Notes: generated by a model from the sequence alone, not told the origin. A stretch of DNA of 64,000 nt from Nitrospirota bacterium (GCA_963790025.1 CAWBMP010000004.1:352001-416000), one strand, 5' to 3'. Shown: positions 7,975 through 22,731, counted from the first letter of the stretch. Numbers and translations are program-made.

Positions 7975-8050
7975 GGTCCCATCGTCTAGAGGCCTAGGAC
8001 GTGGCCCTCTCAAGGCTAAAACACGGGTTCGAATCCCGTTGGGACCGCCA
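7975..8050 (+). tRNA. tRNA-Glu(CTC)
   Basis: GGTCCCA/TGGGACC stem, anticodon arm TGGCC-CTCTCAA-GGCTA, GGTTCGAATCCC, CCA. Confidence 0.95.
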
Positions 8051-8051
8051 A
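8007..8051 (+). repeat. att site, tRNA-proximal copy (3' half of tRNA-Glu)
   Basis: ctctcaaggctaaaacacgggttcgaatcccgttgggaccgccaa, starting at the 7-nt anticodon loop. Confidence 0.93.
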
Positions 8052-8084
8052 TTTTTCAATGAGTTACAAAACTACCGAAAGCCA

Positions 8085-8107
8085 GCGTGCTAATTTCGTG
8101 CTAATTT
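8085..8107 (+). repeat. Putative integrase arm-type sites (tandem CGTGCTAATTT)
   Basis: gcgtgctaatttcgtgcta recurs exactly at 17378-17396. Confidence 0.75.
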
Positions 8108-8143
8108 AAGGCTAAAACACATAGAATGTACTTTTTATATTTT

Positions 8144-9265
8144 TTAGGATTCACCCTGATCACGCTTTCCATCTGACATTTTCTTTAGTTTCCTATCCAA
8201 TATCGAGAGTGGCTGACGTAAAGCCTCCATATTGAGATGGGCATACCTCAATGTCATGCGCAGATCCTTATATCCCAGCAACGCAGCTATAAGCGACAGT
8301 TCGACATGTCCTTGTCGCAAATAAGAGGCAAAGCAGTGCCGCAAGTCATGAAATCGGAAATCATCGATCTCGGCATCTTGAATCACTTTTCTGAAAGCTC
8401 GCTGAACAGTCCTTGCCGTCAGTTGTTTATTGTTGTAATTAAAAACGTAAGGACTGTCTCTCTTGTCGCTTTCAATTATTTCTTTTAAAGCTTCAAAAGC
8501 TGACATCGAAAGCGGATTACCAAAGTTCTCATTGTTTTTCATTTTTCTGCTGGTTATTGCAATTGTCTTATCGGCAAGATTCACTTCGCTTTTCCGTAGA
8601 TTTATGAGGTTTCCCTCTCGCAAACCTGTGCATATAGCTACATTCACCATATATCTTAACCAAGGCTCTGCATTGTCCAGTCGCACAAATAGTTTTGTAA
8701 ATTCTTCTTGTGTAAGATACCTAACTCCAAGTGGTGAGTCTTCCGGAAGTTCGATGCTGGAGACTGGATTGGCGACGTTCCATTTCCATTGTTTACGGGC
8801 AACATTGAACATTCTACGAAGCAGAGTTAGTTCTTTTCTGATAGTACCGCTCTTGGGGGGCACTTGCCTTTTGGTGACCTGCCCTTCCCTCCACGCCTGA
8901 TAGTTTCCGACTTGTTTGCAGACAAGTTTAAGGGATGCATTTTCACCAAAGAACGCATATAGATGTTTAAAAATAGTTTTGTCACGCTTCTTCTGATAAT
9001 ATTCTTTCTTTTCGGTATACAGCTTATCATAACGTGAAATCATATCTTTAAGTTTTATACGACCGCTTTGTTCTAAATCGAACCATTTTTCCTCGGTGAC
9101 CAGAGTTTTGGTTTTCATCAAAATCTTTTTTGCCAGGTCACCAGTACCAGTTGACTGCCGCACCTGAATGCCGCCCACAGTAAATCGCATGTGATAAATT
9201 CCATTCCTCAAAAAGAGTCCCCTTATCATGATGTTGCTCATCTTATCCTTTTCTGTTCTGCTCAT
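8144..9265 (-). CDS. int: Tyrosine recombinase/integrase
   Basis: N-terminal arm-binding-like region (Y..RF...G...RQSTGT), TGLREGNL, FHDLRH, MTLRYAH. Confidence 0.93.
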   Translation of the reverse strand: MSRTEKDKMSNIMIRGLFLRNGIYHMRFTVGGIQVRQSTGTGDLAKKILMKTKTLVTEEKWFDLEQSGRIKLKDMISRYDKLYTEKKEYYQKKRDKTIFKHLYAFFGENASLKLVCKQVGNYQAWREGQVTKRQVPPKSGTIRKELTLLRRMFNVARKQWKWNVANPVSSIELPEDSPLGVRYLTQEEFTKLFVRLDNAEPWLRYMVNVAICTGLREGNLINLRKSEVNLADKTIAITSRKMKNNENFGNPLSMSAFEALKEIIESDKRDSPYVFNYNNKQLTARTVQRAFRKVIQDAEIDDFRFHDLRHCFASYLRQGHVELSLIAALLGYKDLRMTLRYAHLNMEALRQPLSILDRKLKKMSDGKRDQGES

Positions 9266-9593
9266 TTTTTTCTGACAGGCTCTTTAACAAAACTTTCAAA
9301 TTATCATCGAGAGAATGACTCAGAACTATAATCCGAATCCAGTCTATCTATCTGTTTTAGCAGTACATTTAGCCAAAAACATTTAGTTATTGTCTTAGCT
9401 CAGAAAAGGCTAATACAAGGAAGGCCACTTATGATAAAGGCAGGTTATGCAAGCAATAGTGATACAAAATATTACTTACTAATAACAAAGATTGTCTGAT
9501 GAAAGTATCGCACTCATTTTTTTTGATTAATTTATAAATCTGCGGCTTGAAAATATCCAATTCATACTCACCTTTGATTCCATTATTTGTCCT

Positions 9594-9622
9594 ATGACTA
9601 TCGACTACCATTGAGCTATAAT
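9594..9622 (+). promoter_or_regulatory. Putative sigma70 promoter of the island cargo operon
   Basis: ATGACT-N17-TATAAT; RBS AAGGAGG before ATG 9654. Confidence 0.55.
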
Positions 9623-9653
9623 ATTGTAGTTTTTAGATAAAGGAGGCAATTTC

Positions 9654-9956
9654 ATGAGTATTCAGAGCAACATAGTTGAGGCAATAAGGTCTAAACGAAA
9701 ACTCGAATTGAACTATAAGAATGAAGGTCTAAGATTGGTATTGCCTCATGCGATTTATATAAGCACTACGGGGAAAACACTTGTTGATGCATATCAAACA
9801 TCAGGATATTCTACTCATTTAGAAAAAATACCAGACTGGAGACAATTTGATGTGGCTAAAATTAGTAATATTACAGTGTTAGAGGAAACTTTTAACATTG
9901 CATCGGGATATAATCCATCGTCTGATAGGTATTCAAATGCAATTTCAAAAGTCTGA
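9654..9956 (+). CDS. Stand-alone WYL-domain protein
   Basis: AI..KR.LELNY....R.V.PH......G..LVDAYQ..G......WRQF.V.KI, a WYL signature; no HTH. Confidence 0.7.
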   Translation: MSIQSNIVEAIRSKRKLELNYKNEGLRLVLPHAIYISTTGKTLVDAYQTSGYSTHLEKIPDWRQFDVAKISNITVLEETFNIASGYNPSSDRYSNAISKV

Positions 9957-9973
9957 GAGACAACCGAAGCCCC

Positions 9974-10441
9974 ATGCAAAATTATAAAATTCACTTTGAC
10001 AGCTATCAAGATTTTGAATTGCGAAATGTCAAACAGCTAATGGGGGTATGTGGGCTTTATTTTATTTTCCTAAAGAAGACAGTAATACCATATCCATTTG
10101 CAAAATCAAGATTAATCTACATAGGCATGAGTGAAAAGAAAACGAATAGCATAGGCAAAAGACTTTCAGACCATTTTGATGGCATATCAGGGAATGAAGG
10201 GCTGCTCAATTACAAAAAGACAGAAGGGCTATTTTTTACTTATTTGAATTTTGAAATTCTAAAACGACTTTGGACTTATCGTATTGAGGATTTAGAGAGC
10301 TATTTTATTCTTGATTTCCTCAAGCATTATGGGGTATACCCTATCTGTAACAATAAAAGTGGTTTTGAAATTAAGAAATATGATTTGCCAATAACTTTAA
10401 CAATCGATTGGAACTATTTTGGACAGGTGCAAGATAAATGA
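9974..10441 (+). CDS. GIY-YIG family nuclease
   Basis: GLY...IYIGMS...KRL..H...DLE...PICN, with the conserved R, E and N present. Confidence 0.75.
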   Translation: MQNYKIHFDSYQDFELRNVKQLMGVCGLYFIFLKKTVIPYPFAKSRLIYIGMSEKKTNSIGKRLSDHFDGISGNEGLLNYKKTEGLFFTYLNFEILKRLWTYRIEDLESYFILDFLKHYGVYPICNNKSGFEIKKYDLPITLTIDWNYFGQVQDK

Positions 10442-10629
10442 GCGATGAGATAAAGAGTGGACAAGATATACTTCAAACCTTCTTTTCAGAAATAACGACA
10501 ATTGAAGACGTAGATTCAGAAATAGCACTCACGATACAGAATCTTTTTAATCAGGACAAATTGACAATTGCAATTATTTCACAAGAACTCGCAAGGCTTA
10601 GAGAGAAAACGGCAAATGGTAAAAGTTAG
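10438..10629 (+). CDS. Small helical hypothetical protein (63 aa)
   Basis: ATGA overlap with the upstream gene and 14-nt overlap with the ATPase start. Confidence 0.7.
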   Translation: MSDEIKSGQDILQTFFSEITTIEDVDSEIALTIQNLFNQDKLTIAIISQELARLREKTANGKS

Positions 10630-13051
10630 AAATATTGCTTTGTACGGCTTCAGGGGGGTAAGGAAGTCACTCGAAATGAATCTTGAGTCTTCCAAATCAT
10701 TACTCCTGTATGGAGACAATGGCAGTGGGAAGAGTTCTATATCTGATGCGTTTGAATGGTTCTACAGGGATAAGGTTGACCACTTAAGCAAAGAAGAAAT
10801 AGGAACGAAGGGAACTGATGCCCTGAGGAACATATTCTTGCCCGATGATAAAGATGCTCTTGTTGAATTTAAATTTACCGAACCCAAGTATGATGCGGGC
10901 AAAAAACTATTTTATAAAAAGGCAAAACTGACATCGGCATATTCACCGTCTTCAGACGATCTTAACTCTTATCTCGCTCAATCTTTATCCGAAAATCTGT
11001 TTCTACGTTATAAAGACCTTCTCCGTTTTATTTTAGCCACTAAGGCAGATAAGCTTAAAGAATTATCGCAGATCATCGGATTTGCCGAAGTCACAAAAGT
11101 AAAAACTATATTAAAAAAAGCTACGAGTGACCTTAATAGGGACTTCAAGCAAAAAAACTATGAGCAGCAGATTAGCCAAAAACAGGCTTTAATTCTTGAA
11201 CAATTGGAACAACACATCACTAATGATGAACAGTATTTCAATGCGATTAAAGAACTAGTTGCTCCTTTAGGTGTTACCGTTGAAGTCAATGATGAGAAAA
11301 ACATAGATGAAATATTGGAATTAATAAGGAAGCCCGAAGATAAGGACCCAATACTTGACCAAGCATCTTATGAAAAAGCTGTCGAGGCATTAAATAACCT
11401 GCGTGGTCTTATTAAAAGTATTCTTGCAGCATATGAGACTTTCTTCGGCAAATATCAGGCTATTATTAATGATATTAAGAAGCTTAATAAAATTAGTCTT
11501 GAGAACCTATTATCTGAAGGGTTATCTGTTCTTGAAAAAAGATTATTTGACGATGACAGATGTCCCCTCTGTTTGCAAAACAAGGAGAGGGAATCCTTAA
11601 TTGATGAATTAAGAAAACGAATCGAAGAATTAACCCTAATTAAGAAGGAGAAAGACGAATTAGAAGAAGCACAGAAATTCACACTTAACGTCTTTCAATC
11701 TGCCGTAACCGAGATTAATACGGCATTGAGGGAAAGGGCATTTTCAAAAGAGGCACACACCGAGACAAAAAAGAACATTGAACATATAAAGAAAACGCTA
11801 TCGACTTCTCTTGAAAATCTTAACAAATACACACTTAATAACCAGATCGAAATACCGAAGCCAAGTGACTTCATTGTGTATGATGAAGCTATCTTGCAGA
11901 AAGCCATATCAGTCTTTACAGAAGAGAAGACGAAAATATCTAAGCAAAAAAAGGATGACAAGAAATTCTCGGCAAACAGCAAAATAACTTTGGCAAGACA
12001 GGCATACAAAGAAATCAAAGCTCTGAAGGTTGAGGTTGAGAAATATCAGAACCAAATACTTTCAATGGAGCTTATTTGCAATAACTTCATCAAGAGGCAA
12101 AAAGAGGCGCTTACAGTATTTCTAAGGGCAATTTCAAAAGACATAAATGAATTATATTTGTATATGAATGATGCAGAGAAAGTCGACGAAATAGAGCTTA
12201 TTACTCTCGGTGACGACGATGATTTTGAGGGAATTACAATACAGTTTAAGTTTCATGGGGCAGTCGTTTCTCCTCCAGATAAGTACCTAAGTGAATCGCA
12301 TCTTAATTGTCTCGGAATATGTTTATTCTTATCATCGGTGAGGGCATTCAACAAGGTTAATAAGTTTTTTATCCTTGATGATGTAATTTCAAGCTTTGAC
12401 AGAAATCATCGTGGACGCTTCGCTCATTTATTGAAGGAGAAGTTCTCAGATTATCAGATCCTTCTTTTTACACATGAAAAAGATTGGTTTGAATATGTTG
12501 CCAATATGGTTAAGGGACTCAACTGGCTTGTAAAAAGAACAATTTGGAATCATGAAGAAGGAGCAAGCATTGAAATTCCCTTGTACGACTTAAAACAAAG
12601 AATCGATGCCAAGATTGATAAATCTGATACCTCAGAACTGGGCAATATGATAAGACAGTATCTCGAGCGATTGCTTAAAGAGGTATGCTACAGCTTAGAA
12701 GTCAAAGTTAAATTTCTTTACAATGACAGAAATGAAACCAGAATGGTTAATGAACTGTTATCTGAAATGAAAGCGAAATTGAAAGAAAGGAAGTGTGATA
12801 TTACTAACCATTTGGTATTCGATAGATTGGCATCTTCTGTTTATCTTGGAAACGTCACTTCTCACGATAGTTTATATTCTGAGAGCATCGCGGATTTAAT
12901 GATGCTATATAAAGACGTAGTTGAACTGGAAAGCCTTTTCAGATGCAATAACGATAACTGCCACAAACTTATTGCCAAGAAGCATTATGATGACGTTAAC
13001 AAGAAGATACGCTGTTCATGTGGACATTTGACATATGACTGGAAAAAATGA
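10616..13051 (+). CDS. Rad50/SbcC-type ABC ATPase with zinc hook and C-terminal HEPN-like domain (RloC/PrrC-like)
   Basis: Walker A GDNGSGKS, coiled coils around CPLC, signature LSESH, Walker B ILDD..SSFD, H-loop LFTH, then GNMIRQYLE and GNVTSH, then terminal CxxxxC...CxC. Start at ATG 10616 (MVKVRNI). Confidence 0.8.
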   Translation: MVKVRNIALYGFRGVRKSLEMNLESSKSLLLYGDNGSGKSSISDAFEWFYRDKVDHLSKEEIGTKGTDALRNIFLPDDKDALVEFKFTEPKYDAGKKLFYKKAKLTSAYSPSSDDLNSYLAQSLSENLFLRYKDLLRFILATKADKLKELSQIIGFAEVTKVKTILKKATSDLNRDFKQKNYEQQISQKQALILEQLEQHITNDEQYFNAIKELVAPLGVTVEVNDEKNIDEILELIRKPEDKDPILDQASYEKAVEALNNLRGLIKSILAAYETFFGKYQAIINDIKKLNKISLENLLSEGLSVLEKRLFDDDRCPLCLQNKERESLIDELRKRIEELTLIKKEKDELEEAQKFTLNVFQSAVTEINTALRERAFSKEAHTETKKNIEHIKKTLSTSLENLNKYTLNNQIEIPKPSDFIVYDEAILQKAISVFTEEKTKISKQKKDDKKFSANSKITLARQAYKEIKALKVEVEKYQNQILSMELICNNFIKRQKEALTVFLRAISKDINELYLYMNDAEKVDEIELITLGDDDDFEGITIQFKFHGAVVSPPDKYLSESHLNCLGICLFLSSVRAFNKVNKFFILDDVISSFDRNHRGRFAHLLKEKFSDYQILLFTHEKDWFEYVANMVKGLNWLVKRTIWNHEEGASIEIPLYDLKQRIDAKIDKSDTSELGNMIRQYLERLLKEVCYSLEVKVKFLYNDRNETRMVNELLSEMKAKLKERKCDITNHLVFDRLASSVYLGNVTSHDSLYSESIADLMMLYKDVVELESLFRCNNDNCHKLIAKKHYDDVNKKIRCSCGHLTYDWKK

Positions 13052-13107
13052 CAGCTTCATCAACTAGTGGATATTGGTCATAGGCGGCTAAAAGGAGAAC
13101 CGGTTTT

Positions 13108-15411
13108 ATGCCAGCAGCAAAGAAAACTTTAGCTATCGAACGAAAAAGCGGCACAATTTTTAGCCATATCCGTCAGAAGTGGCTTGTTGAAACACCGGAA
13201 GAGCGTGTCCGTCAAGAATATCTTTGTGTTTTAGTCAATGAATACGGATATAGTCTTGATCAAATGGATGAAGAACTCTCAGTTGTTGGCAGAGGGGCAG
13301 CAGACGCAAGAGCTGATTTTCTAATATGGCGAACGCCTCAGGAAAAGGCCGATAAGAAAACTGCGTTAGTTGTTGTTGAGTGCAAGGCTGATAATGTTAC
13401 CATCGACAGTAAGACATATTTGCAGGGCGCTAATTATGCACAGTATGAACGAGCAAAGTTCTTTGTTACTCACAATAACCGCGAAACCAAATACTGGAAG
13501 GTTGATCTTGAGCGAAGAATGCCTAATTATGATGAGATTGAAGATATTCCCCATGCAGAAGCAACCGATGAAGAGATCAAAGAAATCATTTCTCGCCTCA
13601 AGGTATTTCGTGAAGATCAATTTGCCGACCTGTTGCATCAATGTCACAACATCATAAGGAACAGAGAAAAGCTTGACCCTGCCGCAGCTTTTGATGAGAT
13701 AGCCAAGATACTTTTTGTCAAAGTCAGTTTCGAGAGGCGTCTGAAAGTTGGTCGGCAGAGAAAGAATCTTTTTTCCAAGGATTTCTTGGTTCAGCAGAAA
13801 AACCTATATGAGGACCCTATAGATACGCTGTTTACCGAAACGAAGAAAGAATACCGGGCCGATAAAATATTTGAACAGGATGAAAAGATAAATCTCAAGT
13901 TCAATACCGTCAAAGACATCATAGAGAAACTTGAGCGCTACAATCTCTCTGATACTTCAGAAGACGTAAAGGGAATCGCCTTTGAAAAGTTTTTGGGGCG
14001 GACCTTTCGCGGTGAAATAGGACAATTCTTCACTCCCCGGACAATTGTCGAGTTCATGATCAGAATGGTTGACCCCAAAGAAGGTGACATTATTTGTGAT
14101 CCCGCTTCCGGCTCAGGAGGCTTTCTGATCAGATTTTTTGAGATAGTCCGGGAACAAATATTGCTGGACGTTGACAACGAATACCGAAAATACAAGGAAG
14201 AGATCGATACAAAGAAATACACAAAGAAAAAGAAGGCTGACCTGCTGCGCAAAAAATATGAGCAGTTGCAGAGACAGATAAATCCATACGCCAGCAGAGC
14301 AGAATCGAGCAGGGAGGATCGACAGGTTTCCCGTATATGGAGGCTTGCTAACACATGCATTTACGGCTGCGATGCAAATGACAGGATGGCACGGACAAGC
14401 AAAATGAACATGATCATGCACGGCGACGGCCACGGCGGGGTACATCATCATGACGGCTTTATCAATGTGAACGGCATTTTTGAAGAGCGCTTTAACATTG
14501 TTCTTACCAATCCACCCTTCGGCGCAAATGTCGAAGAGTCAGACATAATTGAAGAATCCCATGTGGCTATTCCTGACGATATTGAAAAAAAATACAAAAC
14601 GGACTATGGAACCCTTTACAAAGAGGCCATAGATAAGGTCAGGGCTGCTGTTGGCAAATCGATTCTAAATCTTTTTGACTTGCCCAAGACGGGTAGGATT
14701 AAAACAGAAATACTGTTCATGGAACGTTGTCTTGCATTATTAAAGCCAGGGGGCAAGCTCGGCATTGTCCTTCCCGAAGGCATTTTCAATAATCCATCAC
14801 TTGCATATGTCAGGCAATACTGCGAAGAAAGAGCATTCATAAGGGCAGTAGTGTCTCTTCCCCAGGAGACATTTTTTTCATCCGGGGCAAGCGTCAAGGC
14901 TTCGCTTTTGTTTATGCAGAAATTCACTAACAAGGAAAAGGCGGGCTTCGATGCTCTAAAAACAGCAGCCTTGGCTGAAATTGAGGAAAAGAAAAAAGAG
15001 CAAAAAAACCAACTTCTCGAGATTATTGGAAAACAGAATTATAATCAAAGTGACTTTTTGCCTGAGGGGACGGAGAACTATTCAAAAGAACAGAAAGCAA
15101 AGGCTTCAGAAAAAGCTAAAGAAGGCAATATAAAACTCAGAGAAGAAAAAGACAGGGCAAAAAAAGCACTGAAGGAACTGGAAGAGATAATTCTAAAAGA
15201 AGCAAGAGCGCTTCTTAAGGAAAGATTCAGCTATCCGATTTTCATGTACGAGGCCGAAAAGGTAGGCATTACGGCGACAGGCGAGGCCGATTCCAACGAA
15301 CTTTATCCGAATGATAATATGCCCCCGGATATTGAAAAGACGTGTCTGGAAACTTATCGGGAATTCAGGGAAAATCCTAAACCTTTTATGATATTGGAGC
15401 GAGAAGAGTGA
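13108..15411 (+). CDS. Fused HsdR-N-type endonuclease and N6-adenine methyltransferase
   Basis: PEERVRQ..ADFLI..VECKA..QGANYA (PD-ExK nuclease), then GQFFTPR, DPASGSGGFL, NPPFG. Confidence 0.9.
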   Translation: MPAAKKTLAIERKSGTIFSHIRQKWLVETPEERVRQEYLCVLVNEYGYSLDQMDEELSVVGRGAADARADFLIWRTPQEKADKKTALVVVECKADNVTIDSKTYLQGANYAQYERAKFFVTHNNRETKYWKVDLERRMPNYDEIEDIPHAEATDEEIKEIISRLKVFREDQFADLLHQCHNIIRNREKLDPAAAFDEIAKILFVKVSFERRLKVGRQRKNLFSKDFLVQQKNLYEDPIDTLFTETKKEYRADKIFEQDEKINLKFNTVKDIIEKLERYNLSDTSEDVKGIAFEKFLGRTFRGEIGQFFTPRTIVEFMIRMVDPKEGDIICDPASGSGGFLIRFFEIVREQILLDVDNEYRKYKEEIDTKKYTKKKKADLLRKKYEQLQRQINPYASRAESSREDRQVSRIWRLANTCIYGCDANDRMARTSKMNMIMHGDGHGGVHHHDGFINVNGIFEERFNIVLTNPPFGANVEESDIIEESHVAIPDDIEKKYKTDYGTLYKEAIDKVRAAVGKSILNLFDLPKTGRIKTEILFMERCLALLKPGGKLGIVLPEGIFNNPSLAYVRQYCEERAFIRAVVSLPQETFFSSGASVKASLLFMQKFTNKEKAGFDALKTAALAEIEEKKKEQKNQLLEIIGKQNYNQSDFLPEGTENYSKEQKAKASEKAKEGNIKLREEKDRAKKALKELEEIILKEARALLKERFSYPIFMYEAEKVGITATGEADSNELYPNDNMPPDIEKTCLETYREFRENPKPFMILEREE

Positions 15412-16799
15412 TGCCTGCCATATCAGGCTTTCCTAAAGCGTTTGGCGTGTATTTTGACAACATTGCCAGATGGGACCCTTCAAGTTTCCATGGGATTATT
15501 TGGCATTGGCCGAAAACCCATATGTTCCCCATTGGTACCGTTATAAATCAGAGAAAAGAGAAAGTTGATCGCAGTAAATTTAATTTTACAGAGCTTCAAC
15601 CTGTAACAATCCATTTTGATGGATCTATTGCCAGGAGAAACGTTGACTCATCACGTGAATACACTATGGATCTGTATTTTGCCAGACCCGGCGACATTGT
15701 AGTGGCAAAGATTGATTTAAAAAATGGAGCTGTCGCAATTGTACCTGATCAATGGCGCAATGTTGTTGTTACTGGTCATTTTGCAGTCTATGAGCCGGAG
15801 TGTTCAAGAATTTTACCTGAATTTTTCCATCGCATTATACAGGCAAGTTTTTTTAAAGATCATCTATGGCGAAATAAGGTTGGCGCTGAAGGAAGAAAAG
15901 AAGTGAAGCTCGATTATTTTGAATCCCTTGAGATTCCCATACCGCCTCTTCCAATCCAGCAAAAGATTATCAAAAAATGGCGCACTGCTCAAAACGAAAT
16001 TAAGGAGGCGACAGAAAGAGTAAATAGCCTTGGGAAAAAACTTGCAGAAAGTGCATTAATAGATGCCGGAATTGAACTTTTACCACTGAAACAACGCTCA
16101 AAGTCATTCGGAATTTATTCGGACGAAATTGAAAGATGGGGCGTCGAATTTAACCGCTGGATATGGAAATTATCTGAACTGCTTTTCTCACATAAGTATC
16201 CCATGGTAGTGTTGTCCGATGAAGCCCTCATAAATCCGTCAGACAACGTTTTATCGTCTGATGATAAATTGGTTTCCTTTGTCCCTATGGAAGCTGTTTC
16301 AGACAAAACCGGCGAGATTTCGGCTCCACAGATTCGCAAATGTCGTGAAGTAAAGAATGGATACACACGGTTTAGTAATGAAGATGTCATATGGGCCAAA
16401 ATAACGCCATGCATGCAAAACGGGAAATGTGCTGTTGCAAGAAATCTGGAGAATGGTATTGGCTTCGGATCAACAGAGTTCCATGTGGTCAGAACAAAAA
16501 ATAAATATAGGCTTGTCCCCGATTATATCTGGACTTTGCTTCGGCTCGATCATTTACGCCACGCCGCACAGAGATATTTTATTGGCTCTGCCGGACAACA
16601 GCGCGTTCCTGCTGATTTTCTTGCAAACCTTCAAATCCCTTTTCCCCCTGTTGAGATTCAAAAAACCATTGTTAACAGTGTAAAAAAGGCTTTCTCGGAA
16701 ATTGCCCGTGAACGTGAAGCAGCTGAAAGAAAATCCTGGGAAATTAAGACTGAAATAGAAGCTATGATTCTTGGGACAAGGAAAATCGAAGATTTATGA
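15408..16799 (+). CDS. hsdS: Restriction-modification specificity (S) subunit with two TRDs
   Basis: Two repeats ending IPIPPLPIQQKI and IPFPPVEIQKTI; KITPCMQNGK, GSTEFHV, GSAGQQRVP; GTGA overlap with the upstream gene. Confidence 0.9.
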   Translation: MMPAISGFPKAFGVYFDNIARWDPSSFHGIIWHWPKTHMFPIGTVINQRKEKVDRSKFNFTELQPVTIHFDGSIARRNVDSSREYTMDLYFARPGDIVVAKIDLKNGAVAIVPDQWRNVVVTGHFAVYEPECSRILPEFFHRIIQASFFKDHLWRNKVGAEGRKEVKLDYFESLEIPIPPLPIQQKIIKKWRTAQNEIKEATERVNSLGKKLAESALIDAGIELLPLKQRSKSFGIYSDEIERWGVEFNRWIWKLSELLFSHKYPMVVLSDEALINPSDNVLSSDDKLVSFVPMEAVSDKTGEISAPQIRKCREVKNGYTRFSNEDVIWAKITPCMQNGKCAVARNLENGIGFGSTEFHVVRTKNKYRLVPDYIWTLLRLDHLRHAAQRYFIGSAGQQRVPADFLANLQIPFPPVEIQKTIVNSVKKAFSEIAREREAAERKSWEIKTEIEAMILGTRKIEDL

Positions 16800-16880
16800 C
16801 GAAAATTGAAAAACAAGCAGCCCCGGTAAAAAGCGTTATAATAACTAGAGTGGCAAGTAAATTAGCTATGGAGGTCTTAC

Positions 16881-17081
16881 ATGAGCAAGGTTATTAGTAC
16901 AAAGCCCCAGGTTATCCTGAAAAATGGCAAGCCTGATGCTGTGATAATTAACATCAAAGATTATCATAAGATGCTTGATCGCCTTGAAGACAAGGAAGAC
17001 CTTGCTGAGCTTGAGAGGATGCGTAAAGGACGGCTGAAATTCAGAAAATTTGATGTTTTCCTCTCAGAACATAAGTCATGA
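16881..17081 (+). CDS. Phd/YefM-family antitoxin
   Basis: PQVILKNGKPDAVIINIKDY..M...LED; RBS GGAGG. Confidence 0.8.
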   Translation: MSKVISTKPQVILKNGKPDAVIINIKDYHKMLDRLEDKEDLAELERMRKGRLKFRKFDVFLSEHKS

Positions 17082-17341
17082 AGTATGAGTTGTTTATCGA
17101 AGGTCGGGCAGAAAAAGATTTAAAAAAACTTGACACTTCCCTTTTTAAACTTATCATAACCGAGATTAAGAATTTAGCAGACAATCCCCACCCTCATAAC
17201 AGCAAGAAAATCACGGGCTCAAAAAATGACTGGCGGATAAGAATTGGAGATTACAGAGTCCTCTATGAAATTGACAACAAAGATCAAATAATAAAAATCA
17301 TGAGAGTGAAACACCGGCGCGAAGCCTACAGAAATAATTAA
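17078..17341 (+). CDS. relE: RelE/ParE-family toxin
   Basis: AEKDLKKL...L..NP.P...KK..G....WRIRIGDYRVLY...HRREAY; ATGA overlap. Confidence 0.9.
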   Translation: MKYELFIEGRAEKDLKKLDTSLFKLIITEIKNLADNPHPHNSKKITGSKNDWRIRIGDYRVLYEIDNKDQIIKIMRVKHRREAYRNN

Positions 17342-17377
17342 ACGGTTGTGTGAGGTCAGGACTTGCCGTATGAACCC

Positions 17378-17396
17378 GCGTGCTAATTTCGTGCTA
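17378..17396 (+). repeat. Putative integrase arm-type sites, distal copy
   Basis: Identical to 8085-8103. Confidence 0.75.
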
Positions 17397-17463
17397 CTTT
17401 AGATGTTACAATAGGTAGTAATATGTCAGTATTTGAAAAAAACAATAATTTAGATTAAAAAGT

Positions 17464-17476
17464 TAACTAATTGATT
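17464..17476 (-). promoter_or_regulatory. IHF-like binding site beside the distal att
   Basis: Reverse complement AATCAATTAGTTA matches WATCAANNNNTTR; a one-mismatch copy TTTCAATGAGTTA lies at 8054-8066. Confidence 0.55.
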
Positions 17477-17538
17477 CTAATATCAAATAGTATTTATTTT
17501 AGGTATTTCAAAAAATTTTGAGTAGCTTATTCTTATAT

Positions 17539-17583
17539 CTCTCAAGGCTAAAACACGGGTTCGAATCCCGTTGGGACCGCCAA
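17539..17583 (+). repeat. att site, distal copy (duplicated tRNA-Glu 3' half)
   Basis: 45/45 identity with 8007-8051. Confidence 0.93.
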
Positions 17584-18032: not shown

Positions 18033-18248
18033 TTATGCAAAAATTAACTTGCCTTTTGGTTCAGGTATGGAGCGACCTAATTCTTTTGCTGTTTCTATCC
18101 ACTCCTGTATAACAACCTCGATATTAGCAAGAGCTTTCTTATAGGTAGCTCCATCTGCTGCACAGCCCGGCAACTCCGGCACCTCTGCAATAAATGCCTG
18201 ATCCTCTGCACTCCAATAAATAATGATCTCGTATTTATACTTGCTCAT
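18033..18248 (-). CDS. hicB: HicB antitoxin
   Basis: YWSAEDQAFIAEVPELPGCAADGAT...WIETAKELGRSIPEP. Confidence 0.92.
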   Translation of the reverse strand: MSKYKYEIIIYWSAEDQAFIAEVPELPGCAADGATYKKALANIEVVIQEWIETAKELGRSIPEPKGKLIFA

Positions 18249-18501
18249 CTCTCTTCTCTCCTAATTTGTATTTTAATATTACATTGCGAACCTGTTTAAC
18301 CTGATAAGGTTTTGATTTGCCGCCTATTGGCTGCAAATTAAGTATTTCCTCTACTCCCTCTTTTGTAAATATATGATGACTGCTGCGCACCCTTTCTTCA
18401 AAGCCCAAAAACTTCAGCAACCTGCGCAATCCGTCAAAAGGAATGTTGGCATCTGAAGTCCCGCGCAAAATCTGGATCAGAAGCTTCGCATGCTTCGCCA
18501 T
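18235..18501 (-). CDS. hicA: HicA toxin
   Basis: LGFEERVRSSHHIF...ILNLQP...KPYQVKQVR. Confidence 0.9.
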   Translation of the reverse strand: MAKHAKLLIQILRGTSDANIPFDGLRRLLKFLGFEERVRSSHHIFTKEGVEEILNLQPIGGKSKPYQVKQVRNVILKYKLGEKRDEQV

Positions 18502-18810: not shown

Positions 18811-20400
18811 TTATTTAATACGAAGTTCTGATTGAAAAGAGGCTTCAAGCGCCACATTCTTCACTAGCCGCTCTTTCGAATAGCCAGGATAAATATTGTT
18901 TATTATGCTTAGTATAAACTGGATATGACCTTTATCCTTTATGAAGGGCACTAATAAAGAAGCCGCCAAACTTCTGAAGAGGACGTAATCAGCGGGTAAC
19001 TCATCTTTAAAGCGCCATTTCCTGTCGACAAAGCCGATAGAGCCAGTGTCAGGTAAACTTATCAGGTTCCACAAGACGTAGTCTACAGCATTTCCATCAA
19101 CCAGGTCATAACCTTCTTCATCCTTCCGGTTTTTGGAGTAATCGGCAAGGAGGCACCCATGTAATTTTCGCATAATATTAATAATCTTATTTTCGCTATT
19201 TTGTGAAACTAACGCCCTATAAGCTTCGAAGATCAGCAGATCGCCATTCAGAAACTTATCCGTTTCGATGAGATTAAAGGCGGAATTTTGAGTATTATAC
19301 GAAGTCTTACCGGTATCTATCGGATGGCGGTTTACAAGATATTGTTTGTTTTCGTCTTTAAGAAGTGTTATCACATGGCGGTATGCCGAATTATACATTT
19401 CGCTATTGGAAAACTTCTTGATATGCCATGGCGCTCTCAAGTTCTTTTCCCCTGACTTGCTGGCAAGCACCAGAAATGAATTTGAGAAATGCCAAAAAAG
19501 CCCGGCTTTAACCAGATTCTTGAGAAAAAGAGATTCGGGGAATAAATAAAGTCTCTTGCCCGAATAATCCTCAAATGGAGTTTTTATCCAGTTGTGCAGA
19601 CTCAGTGACAGAATCTCATTGTCCTCCTTCATAAAGGTTTCCGGTAATTTATAATCGGGGAATGCATGATAAAACTGGATATTTTCAAATCCGGCTGCCG
19701 TTAGTATGGCCTGCAGTTCATTCCTGCCGAATGTGACCGCGGTATTATTTGGATACCCGATCAATCCTTCGAAATGCCTGTTTGTGTGGTCTTCCGTGCA
19801 GCCGCTGAAATATTTTGCCCCAAATTTATTCTCAATTGCTATTAATAGCACCCCGTCTTCCGCGAGGGATGATTTCAGTTTTTGCAGAAAAGCAATGCAG
19901 GAAGTTTCGGGTGAGGCATCATTTTTTGCAAGTGAGGGAATGTACTCCATTACGCCTATGAGCGTTACAAGCCCGTACTTTTCAGAACTGAATGCTATAT
20001 CCAGCATGTCGCTGCAGTACACGTTCACATTGTGAAGGTCTCTGGTACGCTTTCTTGTGACGAGGGCCCGGGGCCGGCTCCCCTCTATCGCATCAACTCC
20101 GGAAAAGCTTTCACCAAGCCACCTGGTTATAGCTCCGCACCCTGAACCGAGTTCGAGGACATATGCATCCCTGTCAAGGACATCCGAAACAGCCTTCAGA
20201 ATATTTGCTCTCCGCAGAGAAAGGTGGTACTTCGTAGGCCAATCCTTGATATAAGGAAGCAATTCCGGAGAATAACTTGTCACGTCTTTGAGGTTGCTAA
20301 AAACATTCAAAAGGTATTCTTCACTGCCATCCGAGTAATTCAGGAATGCTCCAGGACGAGTATATATACCCAATGTCTCATCGAAAACAAAGTTTTTCAT
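18811..20400 (-). CDS. Class I SAM-dependent methyltransferase
   Basis: VLELGSGCGAITRWLGE, LIGVMEY, IAIENKFG, FPDYKLP. Confidence 0.8.
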   Translation of the reverse strand: MKNFVFDETLGIYTRPGAFLNYSDGSEEYLLNVFSNLKDVTSYSPELLPYIKDWPTKYHLSLRRANILKAVSDVLDRDAYVLELGSGCGAITRWLGESFSGVDAIEGSRPRALVTRKRTRDLHNVNVYCSDMLDIAFSSEKYGLVTLIGVMEYIPSLAKNDASPETSCIAFLQKLKSSLAEDGVLLIAIENKFGAKYFSGCTEDHTNRHFEGLIGYPNNTAVTFGRNELQAILTAAGFENIQFYHAFPDYKLPETFMKEDNEILSLSLHNWIKTPFEDYSGKRLYLFPESLFLKNLVKAGLFWHFSNSFLVLASKSGEKNLRAPWHIKKFSNSEMYNSAYRHVITLLKDENKQYLVNRHPIDTGKTSYNTQNSAFNLIETDKFLNGDLLIFEAYRALVSQNSENKIINIMRKLHGCLLADYSKNRKDEEGYDLVDGNAVDYVLWNLISLPDTGSIGFVDRKWRFKDELPADYVLFRSLAASLLVPFIKDKGHIQFILSIINNIYPGYSKERLVKNVALEASFQSELRIK

Positions 20401-20412
20401 CCCTTTTTCTCC

Positions 20413-22731
20413 TTATTTGGAGATTCCGCTCACAGACAATAAAAACTGTTCGAGTTCTCTTACCGAGTCCGGATTTTCGTAAAAAATATGGTTCCCCTCC
20501 TGTATCTTTTCACTTAGTTGTTTTTTCCAGTCCGCATCATTCGCAAGCCGTACCGCCCGTTGAATATATTGCTCGCTATCGTTACAGACCAGGTCCATGA
20601 CATTCATTTTCTTGTAGTAGGCGTATGTAAAACGGCTTGCCATGCGGCTTCCGGGCCAGGTTACTATAGGACAACCAACTGAAAAAATTTCCAGGCTCGT
20701 TGTGCCGCCGCAAAAATAAGGGGTATCTAATACTGCATCTGCGCTTCTCATAAAACTGAGAAAATCATTAAAAGAAAGACGCGGCAGGAAAATGATCCTT
20801 TCTGTTACGTCCGGAATTGATTGAAGGAATCTATCCATAAGCAATGTGCTCAAGGGCTTATGCATGGCTTCGAATAAAATCAGCAGGCCATTACTGTCGC
20901 GTCGCAAAATCTCACCTAAAACTGCATCAAAATCCGGATGAAACTTGAATAGGCTTTGAGGCACAACATAAAGCCTGTTTCCGTTTGGCAATCCCACTTT
21001 TTTTCTGATCAGTTGTGTGTCGGTTAATTTAACGCTATCAGGACGGTAAAAATAGTTCGGGATATTTTTCATTCTGACGAGAGATTCCGAATATTGAGTT
21101 TCAGAGCCCTCCGTTTCAAAATCTTCACAGGATATATAAAAATCTATGTTAGGAATCCCGGTTGTATCAGGATGCCCCCACGTTACACACTGCACCGGCG
21201 CCAACCTCGAAAAAGCCAGAAAATAAGTCAGCGCGTCCATTCCGATATCCGTATAAAACAGGATATCCAGCTCACATTCGGCTATCTGCTCACGCGCCTT
21301 TCCCAAGGCTGGAACAAGCGCCACTGATTTATCGGCATTTCTTTCTATGGCGCGTGATATCTCATCGGATTTCTTTTTACCAAAAAAAACATGCACGCTG
21401 AACTGTTGACGCGATAGGTTTGCAATGACCCCCCGGAAATGTTTGCCGATAGTATGATCGTAAAAATTGCTTGAAATAAAACCAATCTTTATTTTTCCAT
21501 GCTTCGCAACTTCTTTTCCCTTTTTGCAGTGAGGCGAAACATAAAGCAAAGATGGGCAGGCATTTATATATAGTTTTGCTATTTTAACCTGCAGGTCCCG
21601 ATTGTTGAGTCCATGATACGCCAGGTAAAAATTGGCTTTGCCGACATCTGCAAGAGGATTATTCAGAATAACTCCCGATTTGAGGAAGTCATCTATTGCG
21701 TGGTCAATCTGCCGGCGATAACGTGAAATATTTTCTCTGGTCGTCATAATTACAGGCAGCAATGTAGCCAATTTTATTCTAATGCCGTCGTTGTGCTTTA
21801 ATTCAATTGCTTTCCGATAACATGCCTTAGCTTTATCAAACTTTCCCATTTTATTGAGAACATTGCCCATATTGTTATAAGCCTGATGATAATCAGGTTT
21901 GAAGGCTATGGCACGGTTGTAGCAGGCTATTGCTTCATCCAGTTTGTCCTGCTCTCTGAGCGCATTGCCTAAATTGTTGTGTGCTTCATGATAGTCAGAT
22001 TTTAACGTCAGGGCCCGCTGGTAACAGGCTATTGCTTCATCCAATTTCCACTGCTCCAGCAACACAACGCCAAGGTTGTTATGCGCCGCATGAAAATCAG
22101 GCTTCAAGGCTATGGCACGGTTGTAACTGCCTATTGCATCATCCAGTCTTCCCTGCTCTTTAAGCGCGTTGCCCAAATTGTTGTGCGCTTCATAAAAATC
22201 AGATTTTATGGCCAGGGCCCGCTGGTAACAGGCTATTGCTTCATCCAATTTCCCTTGCTCCAGCAATACAACGCCAAGGTTGTTATGCGCCGCATGAAAG
22301 TCAGGTTTCAAGGCTATGGCACGGTTGTAACAAGCTATTGCTTCATCTAACTTGCCTTGTTCCACCAACACAACGCCAAGGTTGTTATGCGCCGCATGAA
22401 AATCAGGTTTCAAGGCTATGGCACGGTTGTAACTGGCTATTGCCACATCCGGCTTTTTGAGAGCATGATATACACTCCCGGCTGTATTATGATACAAAAA
22501 AACTGTTTGGTTTATGCCTATAGCCTTTTCAATCAGCTGGACTGCTGCTTCGTTTTTCCCCATTTGATGTGCAATAAGTCCCAGTAAATGTAACGCATCC
22601 GCATTGTCAGGCTCCCTGAGCAAGATTTCATGACAAATCGGCACAGACTGTCTAAGTTCTCCAGCCTGCTGGAGTTTTAAGGCCTGTTGCATGGCGGCAG
22701 AAATATCTAAGGGCCCATTTACATTATTCAT
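20413..22731 (-). CDS. TPR-repeat O-GlcNAc transferase-like glycosyltransferase (GT41/SPINDLY family)
   Basis: About 9 TPRs; KIGFISS.F..HTIGK, RLAPVQC..WGHPDTTG, QSLFKFHP, LDTPYF.GGTTS. Confidence 0.88.
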   Translation of the reverse strand: MNNVNGPLDISAAMQQALKLQQAGELRQSVPICHEILLREPDNADALHLLGLIAHQMGKNEAAVQLIEKAIGINQTVFLYHNTAGSVYHALKKPDVAIASYNRAIALKPDFHAAHNNLGVVLVEQGKLDEAIACYNRAIALKPDFHAAHNNLGVVLLEQGKLDEAIACYQRALAIKSDFYEAHNNLGNALKEQGRLDDAIGSYNRAIALKPDFHAAHNNLGVVLLEQWKLDEAIACYQRALTLKSDYHEAHNNLGNALREQDKLDEAIACYNRAIAFKPDYHQAYNNMGNVLNKMGKFDKAKACYRKAIELKHNDGIRIKLATLLPVIMTTRENISRYRRQIDHAIDDFLKSGVILNNPLADVGKANFYLAYHGLNNRDLQVKIAKLYINACPSLLYVSPHCKKGKEVAKHGKIKIGFISSNFYDHTIGKHFRGVIANLSRQQFSVHVFFGKKKSDEISRAIERNADKSVALVPALGKAREQIAECELDILFYTDIGMDALTYFLAFSRLAPVQCVTWGHPDTTGIPNIDFYISCEDFETEGSETQYSESLVRMKNIPNYFYRPDSVKLTDTQLIRKKVGLPNGNRLYVVPQSLFKFHPDFDAVLGEILRRDSNGLLILFEAMHKPLSTLLMDRFLQSIPDVTERIIFLPRLSFNDFLSFMRSADAVLDTPYFCGGTTSLEIFSVGCPIVTWPGSRMASRFTYAYYKKMNVMDLVCNDSEQYIQRAVRLANDADWKKQLSEKIQEGNHIFYENPDSVRELEQFLLSVSGISK
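21830..22450. repeat. 102-bp tandem TPR-coding repeats with a 204-bp higher-order duplication
   Basis: Near-identical DNA units (aacgccaaggttgttatgcgccgcatgaaa x3); NNLGVVL and NNLGNAL units alternate. Confidence 0.85.

Follow-up and report, generated by a model that had tools for sequence, protein, structure and literature searches.

A widespread, apparently unnamed gene trio encoding a GIY-YIG protein, a 63-residue protein and a hooked Rad50-like ATPase is a candidate anti-virus system on an integrase island of a Nitrospirota bacterium

We have analysed a window of 64,000 nucleotides from a Nitrospirota bacterium, in which an integrase island carries three adjacent genes for a GIY-YIG protein (155 aa), a 63-aa protein and an ATPase (811 aa). 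In 50 of the 52 loci that could be scored, these genes share order and strand and lie at a constant distance from one another, and the trio looks like a widespread, apparently unnamed gene set and a candidate anti-virus system. We regard it as fairly probable that positions 9654-13051 form an autonomous, mobile anti-phage cassette, a defence variant resembling RloC, Lamassu and SbcCD, which lies beside an independent motor-less restriction-modification (R-M) system and a toxin-antitoxin (TA) pair. The features of the region are as follows, with the evidence in brackets.

7975..8050, +, tRNA-Glu(CTC), the integration target (ARAGORN); its 3' half, 8007-8051, is attL
8144..9265, -, tyrosine integrase of the island (Pfam Phage_integrase, E 6.3e-33)
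9594..9622, +, putative sigma-70-like promoter, a consensus match ahead of the WYL gene (ATGACT-17-TATAAT, 10/12)
9654..9956, +, 100-aa stand-alone WYL-like protein, optional fourth gene of the cassette (Pfam WYL, PADLOC WYL)
9974..10441, +, 155-aa protein with a predicted GIY-YIG nuclease fold, the most conserved cassette gene (model, fold matches, conserved residues)
10438..10629, +, 63-aa acidic protein of pI 4.4, predicted to be an anchor at the neck of the ATPase (co-conservation, complex model)
10616..13051, +, 811-aa SMC/Rad50-like ABC ATPase (Pfam SMC_N, E 8.8e-13; PADLOC LmuB)
12578..12940, +, predicted HEPN-fold C-terminal domain of the ATPase, about residues 655-775 (R680-x3-E684 … S749-H750)
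12941..13048, +, four-cysteine zinc-ribbon-like C-terminal tail of the ATPase (conserved C777, C782, C800, C802)
13108..15411, +, 767-aa fusion of an HSDR_N_2 (PD-D/ExK) nuclease-type domain and an N6-adenine methyltransferase (Pfam, PADLOC)
15408..16799, +, 463-aa specificity (S) subunit with two target-recognition domains (Pfam Methylase_S, PADLOC Specificity_I)
16881..17081, +, Phd/YefM-type antitoxin (Pfam PhdYeFM_antitox, 32.4 bits, cut-off 29.8)
17078..17341, +, ParE/RelE-type toxin (Pfam ParE_toxin, E 5.1e-16, 59.5 bits, cut-off 23)
17539..17583, +, attR, right island end, the second 45-bp copy of the 3' half of tRNA-Glu (repeat search, 100% identity)

The original prediction of an island with an integrase alone was borne out by our analysis, which now gives this 9.5-kb element sharp ends, set by an exact 45-bp direct repeat of the 3' half of tRNA-Glu (8007-8051 and 17539-17583) and by a G+C content of 35-45% within the island versus 45-52% outside; HicAB (18033-18501) lies beyond the island end. 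The eight co-oriented genes that it described are real, their coordinates, strands and overlaps (ATGA at 10438-10441, 14 nt at 10616-10629, GTGA at 15408-15411 and ATGA at 17078-17081) all being read in the DNA. The remaining intergenic gaps of the run measure 17, 56 and 81 nt, and no terminator-like site was detected in them on the + strand. The ATG of the ATPase gene (10616) sits within a longer ORF starting with a TTG at 10568. As for the promoter at 9594-9622, it should be read as a putative consensus match only, since sigma-70-like sites were no commoner in the region than in shuffled sequences (27 found versus 25.5 expected). The island is made of three separable modules arranged head to tail, namely 9654-13051, 13108-16799 and 16881-17341.

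The conservation of the first module was assessed at 65 related loci, 13 of which are cut at a contig end or carry an N-terminally truncated ATPase, so that 52 were scorable, with both the ATPase N-terminus and the upstream DNA present; the counts include two near-duplicates (L006 and L008) and come from loci that are not phylogenetically independent. The co-conservation observed shows the arrangement to be beyond chance for three of the eight genes only, and the view of the GIY-YIG, small and ATPase genes as one module stands. Scoring the neighbours of the ATPase homologues returned the 63-aa and GIY-YIG genes as constant companions, but not the WYL gene, the R-M genes or Phd/ParE. Hosts of the trio are found among Nitrospirota, Brocadia, Calditrichota, Bacteroidota, Alphaproteobacteria, Chloroflexota, Patescibacteria, Melainabacteria, Methanoperedens and Aenigmatarchaeota, and the ATPase was present in none of 30 related genomes, which points to a patchy, mobile distribution. 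Elsewhere, the trio is accompanied by OLD nucleases, R-M systems of several types, KwaB, Shedu, SMODS/SLATT, TIR/ThsB, SIR2 with HerA, ApeA, HEPN/MNT and an AAA_13 protein. The combination had been put forward as one without a name, in agreement with our finding that no model of PADLOC-DB 2.0 or NCBIfam 20.0 covers the GIY-YIG or the 63-aa protein and that the trio is not named in PADLOC 2.0, NCBIfam 2026 or the literature, as far as searched.

The GIY-YIG protein is 52-81% identical across loci and basic (pI 8.9). Its predicted model (pLDDT 89.7) displays a single fold over residues 1-150, and the eight best matches of a VIA structure search among 48,161 chains were all GIY-YIG enzymes, with Z-scores that are middling, 6.6 at most (2lwf 6.6, T4 EndoII 6.4, UvrC 6.2, Eco29kI 5.0, I-TevI 4.7, PD-T4-3 4.5, Hpy188I 3.1 and HIGLE 3.0). 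Residues Y29, Y49, G51, R63, H67, E108 and N126 are invariant in all 31 sequences of the protein, their catalytic-type roles being assigned by order and pattern and not by residue-level superposition. The protein misses the Pfam gathering score (GIY_YIG_2, E 0.009, 16.4 bits versus a cut-off of 22.4), and an indirect Pfam link comes from its distant profile matches, 12 of 30 scanned hitting GIY-YIG, eight of them above its cut-off. Both the modelled fold and the motif tests favour an active GIY-YIG nuclease.

The ATPase contains a set of invariant motifs, with Walker A at residue 33, a CPLC zinc hook at 316-319, the signature motif at 558 and Walker B at 586; the hook, unchanged in 20 of 20 aligned homologues, is flanked by helical arms between the two halves of the head, and each of the short coiled-coil arms spans about 150 residues. 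Its PDB profile matches were SMC and Rad50 heads. In PADLOC, the LmuB model PDLC03859 matched with an E-value of 2.6e-20 over profile positions 2-593 of 611, no curated cut-off being shown, and this model is not specific, since it also matches a true AAA_13 protein (E 2.7e-14) and a paralogue (8.8e-31). The C-terminal domain, with a predicted model of pLDDT 81.6, gave HEPN proteins as best Foldseek matches (2q00 with E 0.02, 1o3u and 2hsb) and VIA Z-scores of 9.2 for Roquin, 8.0 for HEPN 4nqf, 7.9 for Csm6, 7.5 for sacsin HEPN and 7.1 for AbiA, values that are not decisive alone, because the domain is helical and a Z below about 13 can be generic. R680, E684, S749 and H750 are conserved among ATPase homologues. 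The canonical HEPN Rx4-6H motif is absent from the domain, in which N746 and not an Arg stands ahead of the conserved His750 (G-N-x-x-S-H). In the available part of PMC2610378, the anticodon nuclease (ACNase) triad of PrrC/RloC is given as Arg-X3-Glu-X36-52-(Ser)His; the spacer from R-x3-E to His in the ATPase is 65 residues versus the published 36-52. An hhalign comparison of the HEPN-domain profile with the true AAA_13 protein (L043) found no sequence similarity. Overall, the model and the conserved residues support a HEPN domain with an RloC-like R-x3-E…S-H motif. The ATPase is thus SMC/Rad50/LmuB-like, hooked and predicted to bear a HEPN-fold domain, which upholds the earlier proposal of a Rad50-type ATPase that seems to carry its own effector. 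The zinc-ribbon tail is naturally missing from ATPase variants of 775-782 aa (L024, L028, L029, L031 and L058), and variants of 651-674 aa (L020, L042, L059 and L061) have no HEPN domain. These HEPN-less variants represent a modular effector swap; those of L020 and L061 are followed by a 491-aa protein combining a Cas4-like PD-(D/E)xK with an RNase-H fold.

The 63-aa protein gave no family match in PADLOC, Pfam, NCBIfam or PHROGs. In the complex model it lies on the part of the ATPase coiled coil next to the head, with an ipSAE of 0.72 (0.72, 0.72 and 0.74 in the individual runs), the best value of three controls being 0.00. Its modelled contacts involve ATPase residues 155-176 and 473-505, and the runs share at least 92% of the contacts, with a partner pLDDT of at least 80. 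Among solved complexes, 116 of 157 attained this ipSAE mark, versus 2 of 215 mismatched pairs; these counts hold only roughly here, because the runs relied on custom alignments and three chains. The complex model did not bring the 63-aa protein into confident contact with the GIY-YIG protein. We predict from this model that the 63-aa protein serves as an anchor on the ATPase neck.

The original prediction joined the WYL gene to the trio in a single four-gene block, of which the last three genes proved co-conserved, whereas WYL homologues occur in only 13 of 65 loci and adjoin the cassette in 7. The WYL-like protein scores below the cut-off of Pfam WYL (E 0.0019, 18.6 bits versus 21.8) and matches PADLOC WYL with E 2.9e-5; among the 11 family members scanned, seven have WYL matches at E 0.05 or better, one of which, that of L028, lies above the Pfam cut-off (25.8 versus 21.8 bits). 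Elsewhere a KTSC or another 75-aa protein occupies the place of this gene. On its distribution among the loci, the WYL-like protein is an optional accessory of the cassette.

In the second module, the 767-aa fusion matches Pfam HSDR_N_2 (E 3.5e-21) and N6_Mtase (E 9.7e-34) and PADLOC MTase_I (763 bits), its motifs D70…E91-x-K93, DPASGSGGF and NPPF being readable, while the S subunit matches Methylase_S in two stretches (E 1e-16) and Specificity_I (E 2.7e-71). No helicase or translocase ORF was found between 8052 and 17583, and the nearest SWI2_SNF2 type I R-like gene lies more than 1 Mb off on the same contig. As read from sequence, 13108-16799 is an independent motor-less R-M system of BcgI/type IIG-like character, for which cleavage is predicted; with BcgI, which we take to be its likeness, and with type IIG systems it would share a PD-(D/E)xK-type domain fused to a gamma-type N6-adenine methyltransferase, a separate S subunit with two target-recognition domains, and no translocase. 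An assignment to type I R-M was rejected, given that the island has no HsdR translocase and that the M protein itself carries HSDR_N_2. MADS was also set aside for the island, the MAD2 and MAD5 models of NCBIfam matching 13108-16799 partially and far below their cut-offs (273 versus 720 and 35 versus 400 bits, respectively) and the other mad genes being absent; the ATPase matches mad3 only at E 8e-9. By its profile matches, 16881-17341 is a Phd/ParE addiction pair, whose toxin also exceeds the cut-off of NCBIfam RelE_StbE (33.3 bits, above 27.9).

In the mechanism that we infer, which extends to the defence function, the trigger, the substrates and the membership of the GIY-YIG protein in the complex, ATPase dimers joined at the CPLC hook would bind DNA ends or structures that are specific to phages. 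SbcD/Mre11 binds SbcC/Rad50 through its C-terminal domain at the base of the coiled coil, and the modelled location of the 63-aa protein, on the coiled coil close to the head, would match that site; this protein might help to couple the heads to the GIY-YIG nuclease, which would take the part of Mre11/SbcD. The sensing of DNA and the turnover of ATP would then license the GIY-YIG nuclease to cut DNA, and the same licensing could allow the HEPN domain to cut RNA, probably tRNA, by which infection would be stopped. A more specific proposal, possible in our view though somewhat short of an even chance, is that of a distinct unnamed immune system that combines two known strategies, in which an SbcCD/Mre11-Rad50-like DNA sensor, with a GIY-YIG protein in place of the phosphoesterase and with the Rad50-binding tail turned into a free 60-residue anchor, is wired directly to an RloC-type anticodon-nuclease domain, and in which the swappable WYL, KTSC and 75-aa proteins are ligand or nucleic-acid sensors that tune it. 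If true, the sensing or cutting of foreign DNA would be coupled to translation shutdown in one machine. KTSC is named for the C-terminus of lysyl-tRNA synthetases, a name that hints at a link to tRNA-Lys, the classic target of PrrC/RloC.

In the original prediction, the eight genes were one multi-layer system with the first block guarding the R-M. On such a reading, the WYL, GIY-YIG, 63-aa and ATPase proteins would be a latent back-up, like PrrC with EcoprrI, restrained by the adjoining R-M and firing when a phage disables it. Co-orientation, overlaps of 4-14 nt or gaps of 17-81 nt and the lack of + strand terminator-like sites between the genes are in line with this proposal. According to the available parts of PMC2610378 and PMC3710099, a linked type Ic R-M enzyme keeps PrrC silent, and linkage to type I or III loci is known for a few of the RloC genes. 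Moreover, R-M hallmarks of types I, II, IIG and III occur within 5 kb of the trio in 15 of 45 genome loci, with R-M directly adjoining it in L002 (where a methylase gene and a ResIII gene flank it), L012, L018, L026, L034 and L042, among others. However, no R-M hallmark occurs within this distance in the other 30, the linked types vary, and OLD, Shedu, CBASS-like, Kiwa or Thoeris genes are found at other loci. Neither the MTase nor the S gene of the window has a close homologue at the 65 related loci, the best tblastn matches reaching 18-30% identity in 6 of them, and at none of these loci does a Phd/ParE pair stand beside another cassette. We therefore consider the eight-gene system unlikely, and its guarding role was further weakened by the scarce and mixed R-M linkage. 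The trio may be coupled to restriction in trans in a PrrC/RloC-like manner, R-M being near about a third of the genome loci.

The likeness to Lamassu/ABC systems noted beforehand is seen in the order of effector, small middle gene and ATPase, and the best PADLOC match of the ATPase is LmuB, over nearly the whole profile. This could suggest a Lamassu (ABC-3C) subtype with the GIY-YIG protein as LmuA, the 63-aa protein as LmuC and the ATPase as LmuB, in which DNA-end sensing would free an effector that oligomerises and degrades DNA. In the available text of 10.1101/2025.04.02.646746, many LmuB have a CxxC hook, as here, and long LmuC is proposed to derive from the SbcC-binding C-terminal domain of SbcD, an origin that the modelled position of the 63-aa protein on the coiled coil would fit. 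Nevertheless, the nuclease fold fills the 155-aa protein and leaves no room for the LmuA C-terminal domain, PADLOC gave 0 matches of the LmuA models to this protein and 0 of the LmuC models to the 63-aa protein, the LmuB model also recognizes the true AAA_13 protein, LmuB is not described with a HEPN effector of its own, and GIY-YIG proteins are not among the Lamassu effectors in the portions of the literature covered by the search, all of which makes a Lamassu subtype improbable. Even less probable, and indeed very unlikely, is a trio devoted to mobile-element maintenance, DNA repair, TA function (basic GIY-YIG toxin and acidic 63-aa antitoxin) or SbcCD-like end processing for the island. While the cassette is carried on integrase islands, the ATPase is similar to Rad50 and SbcC, which act in repair, and a basic nuclease followed by a small acidic protein with a stop/start overlap is TA-like, the 63-aa protein is confidently modelled on the ATPase and not on the GIY-YIG protein, the 800-aa ATPase is always part of the trio, the neighbours are overwhelmingly defence genes, and absence from 30 of 30 related genomes is unlike a housekeeping repair function.

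The autonomous anti-phage cassette that we favour shares traits with three known systems. As in RloC/PrrC, for which we rely on the available part of PMC2610378, a Rad50-like ABC ATPase, a coiled coil with a CxxC hook and a predicted C-terminal HEPN-type RNase domain are united in one polypeptide, with an R-x3-E … S-H pattern that resembles the published triad, and R-M or defence neighbourhoods are frequent. RloC is, however, a stand-alone gene, whereas this ATPase is always preceded by GIY-YIG and 60-aa genes, some members have no HEPN domain at all, and the triad spacer is longer. The family models of RloC/PrrC do not place the ATPase among their members, there being no Pfam AAA_13 match at E 0.01 or better; PADLOC PDC-S06 matches it partially with E 7.6e-7, versus 5.6e-176 for the true member in L043. 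With Lamassu/ABC-3C (LmuA-LmuC-LmuB; DdmABC) the cassette has in common the layout of nuclease effector, small middle protein and hooked SMC/Rad50-like ATPase, the best PADLOC match, a swappable effector and a home in defence islands, but it has as effector a minimal GIY-YIG protein that lacks the C-terminal domain of LmuA, its middle protein has only about 60 residues, and its ATPase bears an additional HEPN plus zinc-ribbon module. As in SbcCD/Mre11-Rad50, finally, a zinc-hook ABC ATPase has its partner nuclease encoded just upstream, SbcD likewise being encoded just before SbcC, and the 63-aa protein is modelled at the base of the coiled coil, the binding site of the SbcD/Mre11 C-terminal domain (10.1101/2025.04.02.646746, available text). 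In contrast to SbcCD, the cassette has a GIY-YIG nuclease where SbcCD has a calcineurin-like phosphoesterase, the predicted anchor is encoded separately as a 63-aa protein, and short arms and a patchy, island-borne distribution are combined with an added HEPN domain.

Comparison of loci across genomes and metagenomes supports a smaller unit than originally proposed, namely a cassette formed by the 155-aa GIY-YIG gene, the 63-aa 'anchor' gene and the 811-aa zinc-hook ATPase gene, which together with the optional WYL gene occupies positions 9654–13051. The ATPase family comprised 356 matches, with proteins of ~808 aa, its closest members being the homologues P0002 (79%) and P0003 (70%). Gene neighborhoods were compared in 65 loci, 45 from species genomes and 20 from metagenomes, drawn from contigs other than those of P0002 and P0003; 13 of them were unscorable owing to an ATPase cut by the contig end or truncated N-terminally. 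As determined by tblastn and profile search, the GIY-YIG and 63-aa genes lie directly upstream of the ATPase gene, on the same strand and at a fixed spacing, in 50 of the 52 scorable loci, the two exceptions being a degraded ATPase (L040) and a distant homologue with 26% identity (L045). The GIY-YIG gene of one locus, L016, is reduced to a remnant. Conservation is highest in the small predicted nuclease, at 52–81% identity; the ATPases of those loci show 36–60%. The cassette has hosts in numerous phyla of bacteria and in two lineages of archaea. The ATPase was absent from all 30 genomes examined within the genus, family and order to which the window belongs, a fact that fits horizontal spread.

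The original prediction had joined all eight genes of the island into one multi-layer anti-phage system, a reading unsupported by these data. Of the 65 loci, 13 carry a WYL-like gene, which is adjacent and co-oriented in seven, while the window MTase and S genes found just 18–30% identical matches in six loci and the Phd/ParE pair had no match in any of the 65. The place of the WYL gene is taken by a KTSC-domain protein in eight loci (Pfam E down to 1.5e-27), and by an unrelated 75-aa protein, encoded upstream of the cassette or just after it, in seven others. The cassette, with its three or four genes, is a credible candidate for a defence system. The KTSC protein (PF13619, ~71 aa) was located in L001 (1984–2196), L004 (2114–2326), L010 (6141–6353), L018, L042, L044, L052 and L053, often with its gene ~5 nt ahead of the GIY-YIG gene. 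Since the KTSC domain takes its name from the C-terminal domain of lysyl-tRNA synthetase, its occurrence beside an RloC-like nuclease is intriguing.

The surroundings of the cassette were scanned against Pfam using, from the 45 genome loci, 205 flanking proteins with lengths of 150 aa or more and 27 small ones. These flanks are rich in defence genes, including KwaB, Shedu SduA, SMODS/SLATT, ThsB/TIR, SIR2 with HerA, ApeA, HEPN/MNT, Schlafen/AlbA and an AAA_13 protein, as well as OLD-family nucleases in L004, L006, L008, L010 and L029. Restriction–modification (R-M) hallmarks of differing types appeared in 15 of the 45 genome loci, and R-M genes abut the cassette in the window and likewise in, for example, L002, L012, L018, L026, L034 and L042. 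Hence, the cassette is a resident of defence islands that often, though not regularly, stands next to restriction genes. In L043, a bona fide AAA_13 gene (693–2951; RloC/PDC-S06-type, E 3.4e-135) is located directly upstream of a WYL–GIY-YIG–63-aa–ATPase cassette, so two related ATPase systems can coexist side by side. The R-M pair of the window (13108–16799) encodes an M protein with an HSDR_N_2 domain (D70…E91-x-K93), motif I and NPPF, and an S subunit with two TRDs. The island encodes no translocase and is separated by more than 1 Mb from the nearest type I R-like gene, an arrangement that fits a motor-less system, probably of the type IIG/BcgI kind. The Phd/ParE genes (16881–17341) are an ordinary toxin–antitoxin (TA) pair.

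Regarding the island itself, the eight co-oriented ORFs lie exactly where the original prediction had placed them, and the overlaps it described were read directly at 10438–10441 (ATGA), 10616–10629 (14 nt), 15408–15411 (GTGA) and 17078–17081 (ATGA). Its view that these genes make up the cargo also held, since together with a tyrosine integrase they account for the whole island, whose limits (8052–17583) are set by two identical 45-bp copies of the tRNA-Glu 3′ half, in direct orientation, at 8007–8051 and 17539–17583. The eight-gene set occupies a low-G+C stretch beside the integrase and the tRNA-Gln and tRNA-Glu genes, and good Shine-Dalgarno sequences precede both the WYL and the methylase genes. 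The putative promoter at 9594–9622 is a guess from the sequence, with a 10/12 consensus match of a kind found 27 times in the region versus 25.5 in shuffles. A second, imperfect direct repeat (27 nt, 93%), which includes a tandem GTGCTAATTT-like unit, lies just inside either end of the island at 8082–8108 and 17375–17401, and may represent putative arm or accessory binding sites of the integrase. Further features around the island were the following:

9429–9611, minus strand: 60-aa ORF between the integrase and WYL genes, without family match
18033–18501, minus strand: HicB/HicA TA pair, with HicB above the Pfam cut-off and HicA weak (E 3.3e-4)
18811–22731, minus strand: 529-aa protein with a class I SAM-methyltransferase domain and 772-aa TPR/GT41 glycosyltransferase protein, just past the island

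The 60-aa ORF may encode an excisionase-like protein, or may be spurious. The HicAB genes are outside the island, immediately beyond attR, and thus on the chromosome side of the integration site, and the two genes at 18811–22731 are chromosomal and unrelated to the cassette.

The 811-aa ATPase matched Pfam SMC_N, SMC/Rad50 heads in the PDB and, over almost the whole profile, the PADLOC LmuB model (E 2.6e-20). Its Walker A, signature, Walker B and H-loop are all invariant, and a CPLC hook is situated midway between the two halves of the head. Residues ~655–775 form a HEPN-like helical domain in the model (pLDDT 81.6), directly followed by a four-cysteine ribbon. This domain lacks the Rx4-6H motif and conserves R680-x3-E684 together with S749-H750. 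The anticodon-nuclease triad described for PrrC/RloC is Arg-X3-Glu-X36-52-His, often with Ser ahead of the His (PMC2610378); the pattern in the ATPase is alike, but its spacer of 65 residues is longer than X36-52. The C-terminal part of the protein varies in nature. The ATPase match ends near query residue 662 in six loci, and complete short forms of 651–674 aa without the HEPN and ribbon modules occur in L020, L042, L059 and L061, while the ribbon alone is missing in five loci (775–782 aa). The gene following the HEPN-less ATPase in L020 (2735–4207) and L061 (4556–6028) encodes a conserved 491-aa protein with Cas4-like PD-(D/E)xK and RNase-H-fold (RNase_H_2) domains, which looks like an alternative effector module. 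The HEPN module is therefore exchangeable, whereas GIY-YIG and anchor remain constant, which suggests that the latter two are part of the core that senses and processes, comparable to SbcD alongside SbcC, with HEPN as an effector that can be swapped. The genome under study encodes a second SMC-like ATPase of 821 aa, 24% identical (G000:C2:89480–91609; minus strand in locus L067, 1183–3645), with matches to PADLOC LmuB (E 8.8e-31) and, just over the cut-off, to Pfam AAA_13 (36.8 bits). It is preceded by a 177-aa ribbon-helix-helix protein, without GIY-YIG or 63-aa genes, and may be another ATPase-based defence gene.

The 155-aa protein matched only GIY_YIG_2 in Pfam, below threshold, and had no match in PHROGs. 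Its profile retrieved 111 proteins from 1.84 billion representatives, and 12 of 30 distant matches scanned hit Pfam GIY-YIG, eight of them above its cut-off. The best eight matches to its AlphaFold model (pLDDT 89.7) among 48,161 chains were all GIY-YIG enzymes, with Z from 6.6 to 3.0. HEPN proteins likewise dominated both the Foldseek and the VIA fold-comparison top lists of the ATPase C-terminal domain (Z up to 9.2). Both fold assignments are based on the make-up of these lists and the VIA Z-scores; searches of either profile against the PDB by sequence and profile stayed at chance level (E at least 0.6), and Foldseek alone gave no match at E ≤0.001 for either model. All 31 family sequences compared share Y29, Y49-x-G51, R63, H67, E108 and N126, and the protein is taken to be an active GIY-YIG nuclease, as predicted from motifs and model.

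The 63-aa protein is acidic (pI 4.4), had no match in Pfam, PADLOC, NCBIfam or PHROGs and found only unnamed clusters of 59–62 aa in the ESM Atlas (scores 0.81–0.85). A three-chain model comprising ATPase residues 1–780, the GIY-YIG protein and the 63-aa protein docks the latter on the head-proximal coiled coil (ATPase 155–176 and 473–505) and adjoining head loops. The interface scored an ipSAE of 0.72, 0.72 and 0.74 across three runs, against a maximum of 0.00 in three controls. Of 157 solved complexes, 116 attain the mark used, as do 2 of 215 mismatches; such counts are a rough guide for a model with custom alignments and three chains. The runs shared at least 92% of contacts, with partner pLDDT of at least 80. 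The modelling supports the predicted binding of the 63-aa protein to the ATPase, and showed no confident contact between the 63-aa and GIY-YIG chains.

We propose that hook-linked ATPase dimers would recognize phage DNA ends or structures, with the 63-aa protein occupying the neck at the position of the SbcD/Mre11 C-terminal domain and the GIY-YIG protein cleaving the DNA. An ATP-driven rearrangement might then free the HEPN RNase, probably onto tRNA, halting translation, while WYL, KTSC or the 75-aa protein could modulate expression or activation. Long LmuC has been proposed to originate from a split of the SbcD nuclease from its SbcC-binding tail, with the latter encoded immediately ahead of the ATPase (10.1101/2025.04.02.646746). 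The order of the cassette, nuclease, small anchor and hook ATPase, reproduces that layout but with another nuclease; its natural nuclease/anchor split mirrors the proposed step. If the trio works in defence, it would represent a second, independent path from a Rad50-type DNA sensor to an immune machine, and would provide RloC-type enzymes with an 'associated DNase', whose absence was remarked on by the RloC authors. Being compact (~3.1 kb), highly conserved and present from archaea to Bacteroidota, the cassette is easy to test. For the window, the eight genes are better annotated as a stack of three modules carried by a tRNA-Glu island than as one eight-gene system.

Membership of known systems was considered in several cases. 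RloC/PrrC was rejected on the lack of an AAA_13 match and on a PDC-S06 E-value of 7.6e-7 versus 5.6e-176 for a true member; hhalign of profiles A1 and A3 (the latter of the HEPN domain) against the AAA_13 protein of L043 gave an alignment of the ABC signature/Walker B region alone (probability 89). The cassette is not recognizable as Lamassu: neither LmuA nor LmuC models were matched, the 155-aa protein leaves no space for the C-terminal domain of LmuA, and the LmuB model lacks specificity. It is not a member of SbcCD, since its nuclease is from a different family, and MADS, considered for matches to MAD2, mad3 and mad5, was discarded with MAD2 and MAD5 scores far below their cut-offs. Neither the GIY-YIG nor the 63-aa protein has a model in NCBIfam 20.0 (June 2026) or PADLOC-DB 2.0, and the accessible portions of the literature on Lamassu, RloC, GIY-YIG and zinc-hook/SMC-like/HEPN defence do not describe the trio; the ABC-ATPase/ABC-3C survey (Krishnan et al. 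2020), outside that scope, may list the clade. The cassette is apparently unnamed so far and a new candidate among Rad50-like ATPase defence machines. With the ATPase, hook and ACNase-type HEPN of RloC, and the nuclease, anchor and ATPase of Lamassu/SbcCD, it resembles a blend of both and, if the trio works in defence, would join RloC, Lamassu and SbcCD, families treated apart until now.
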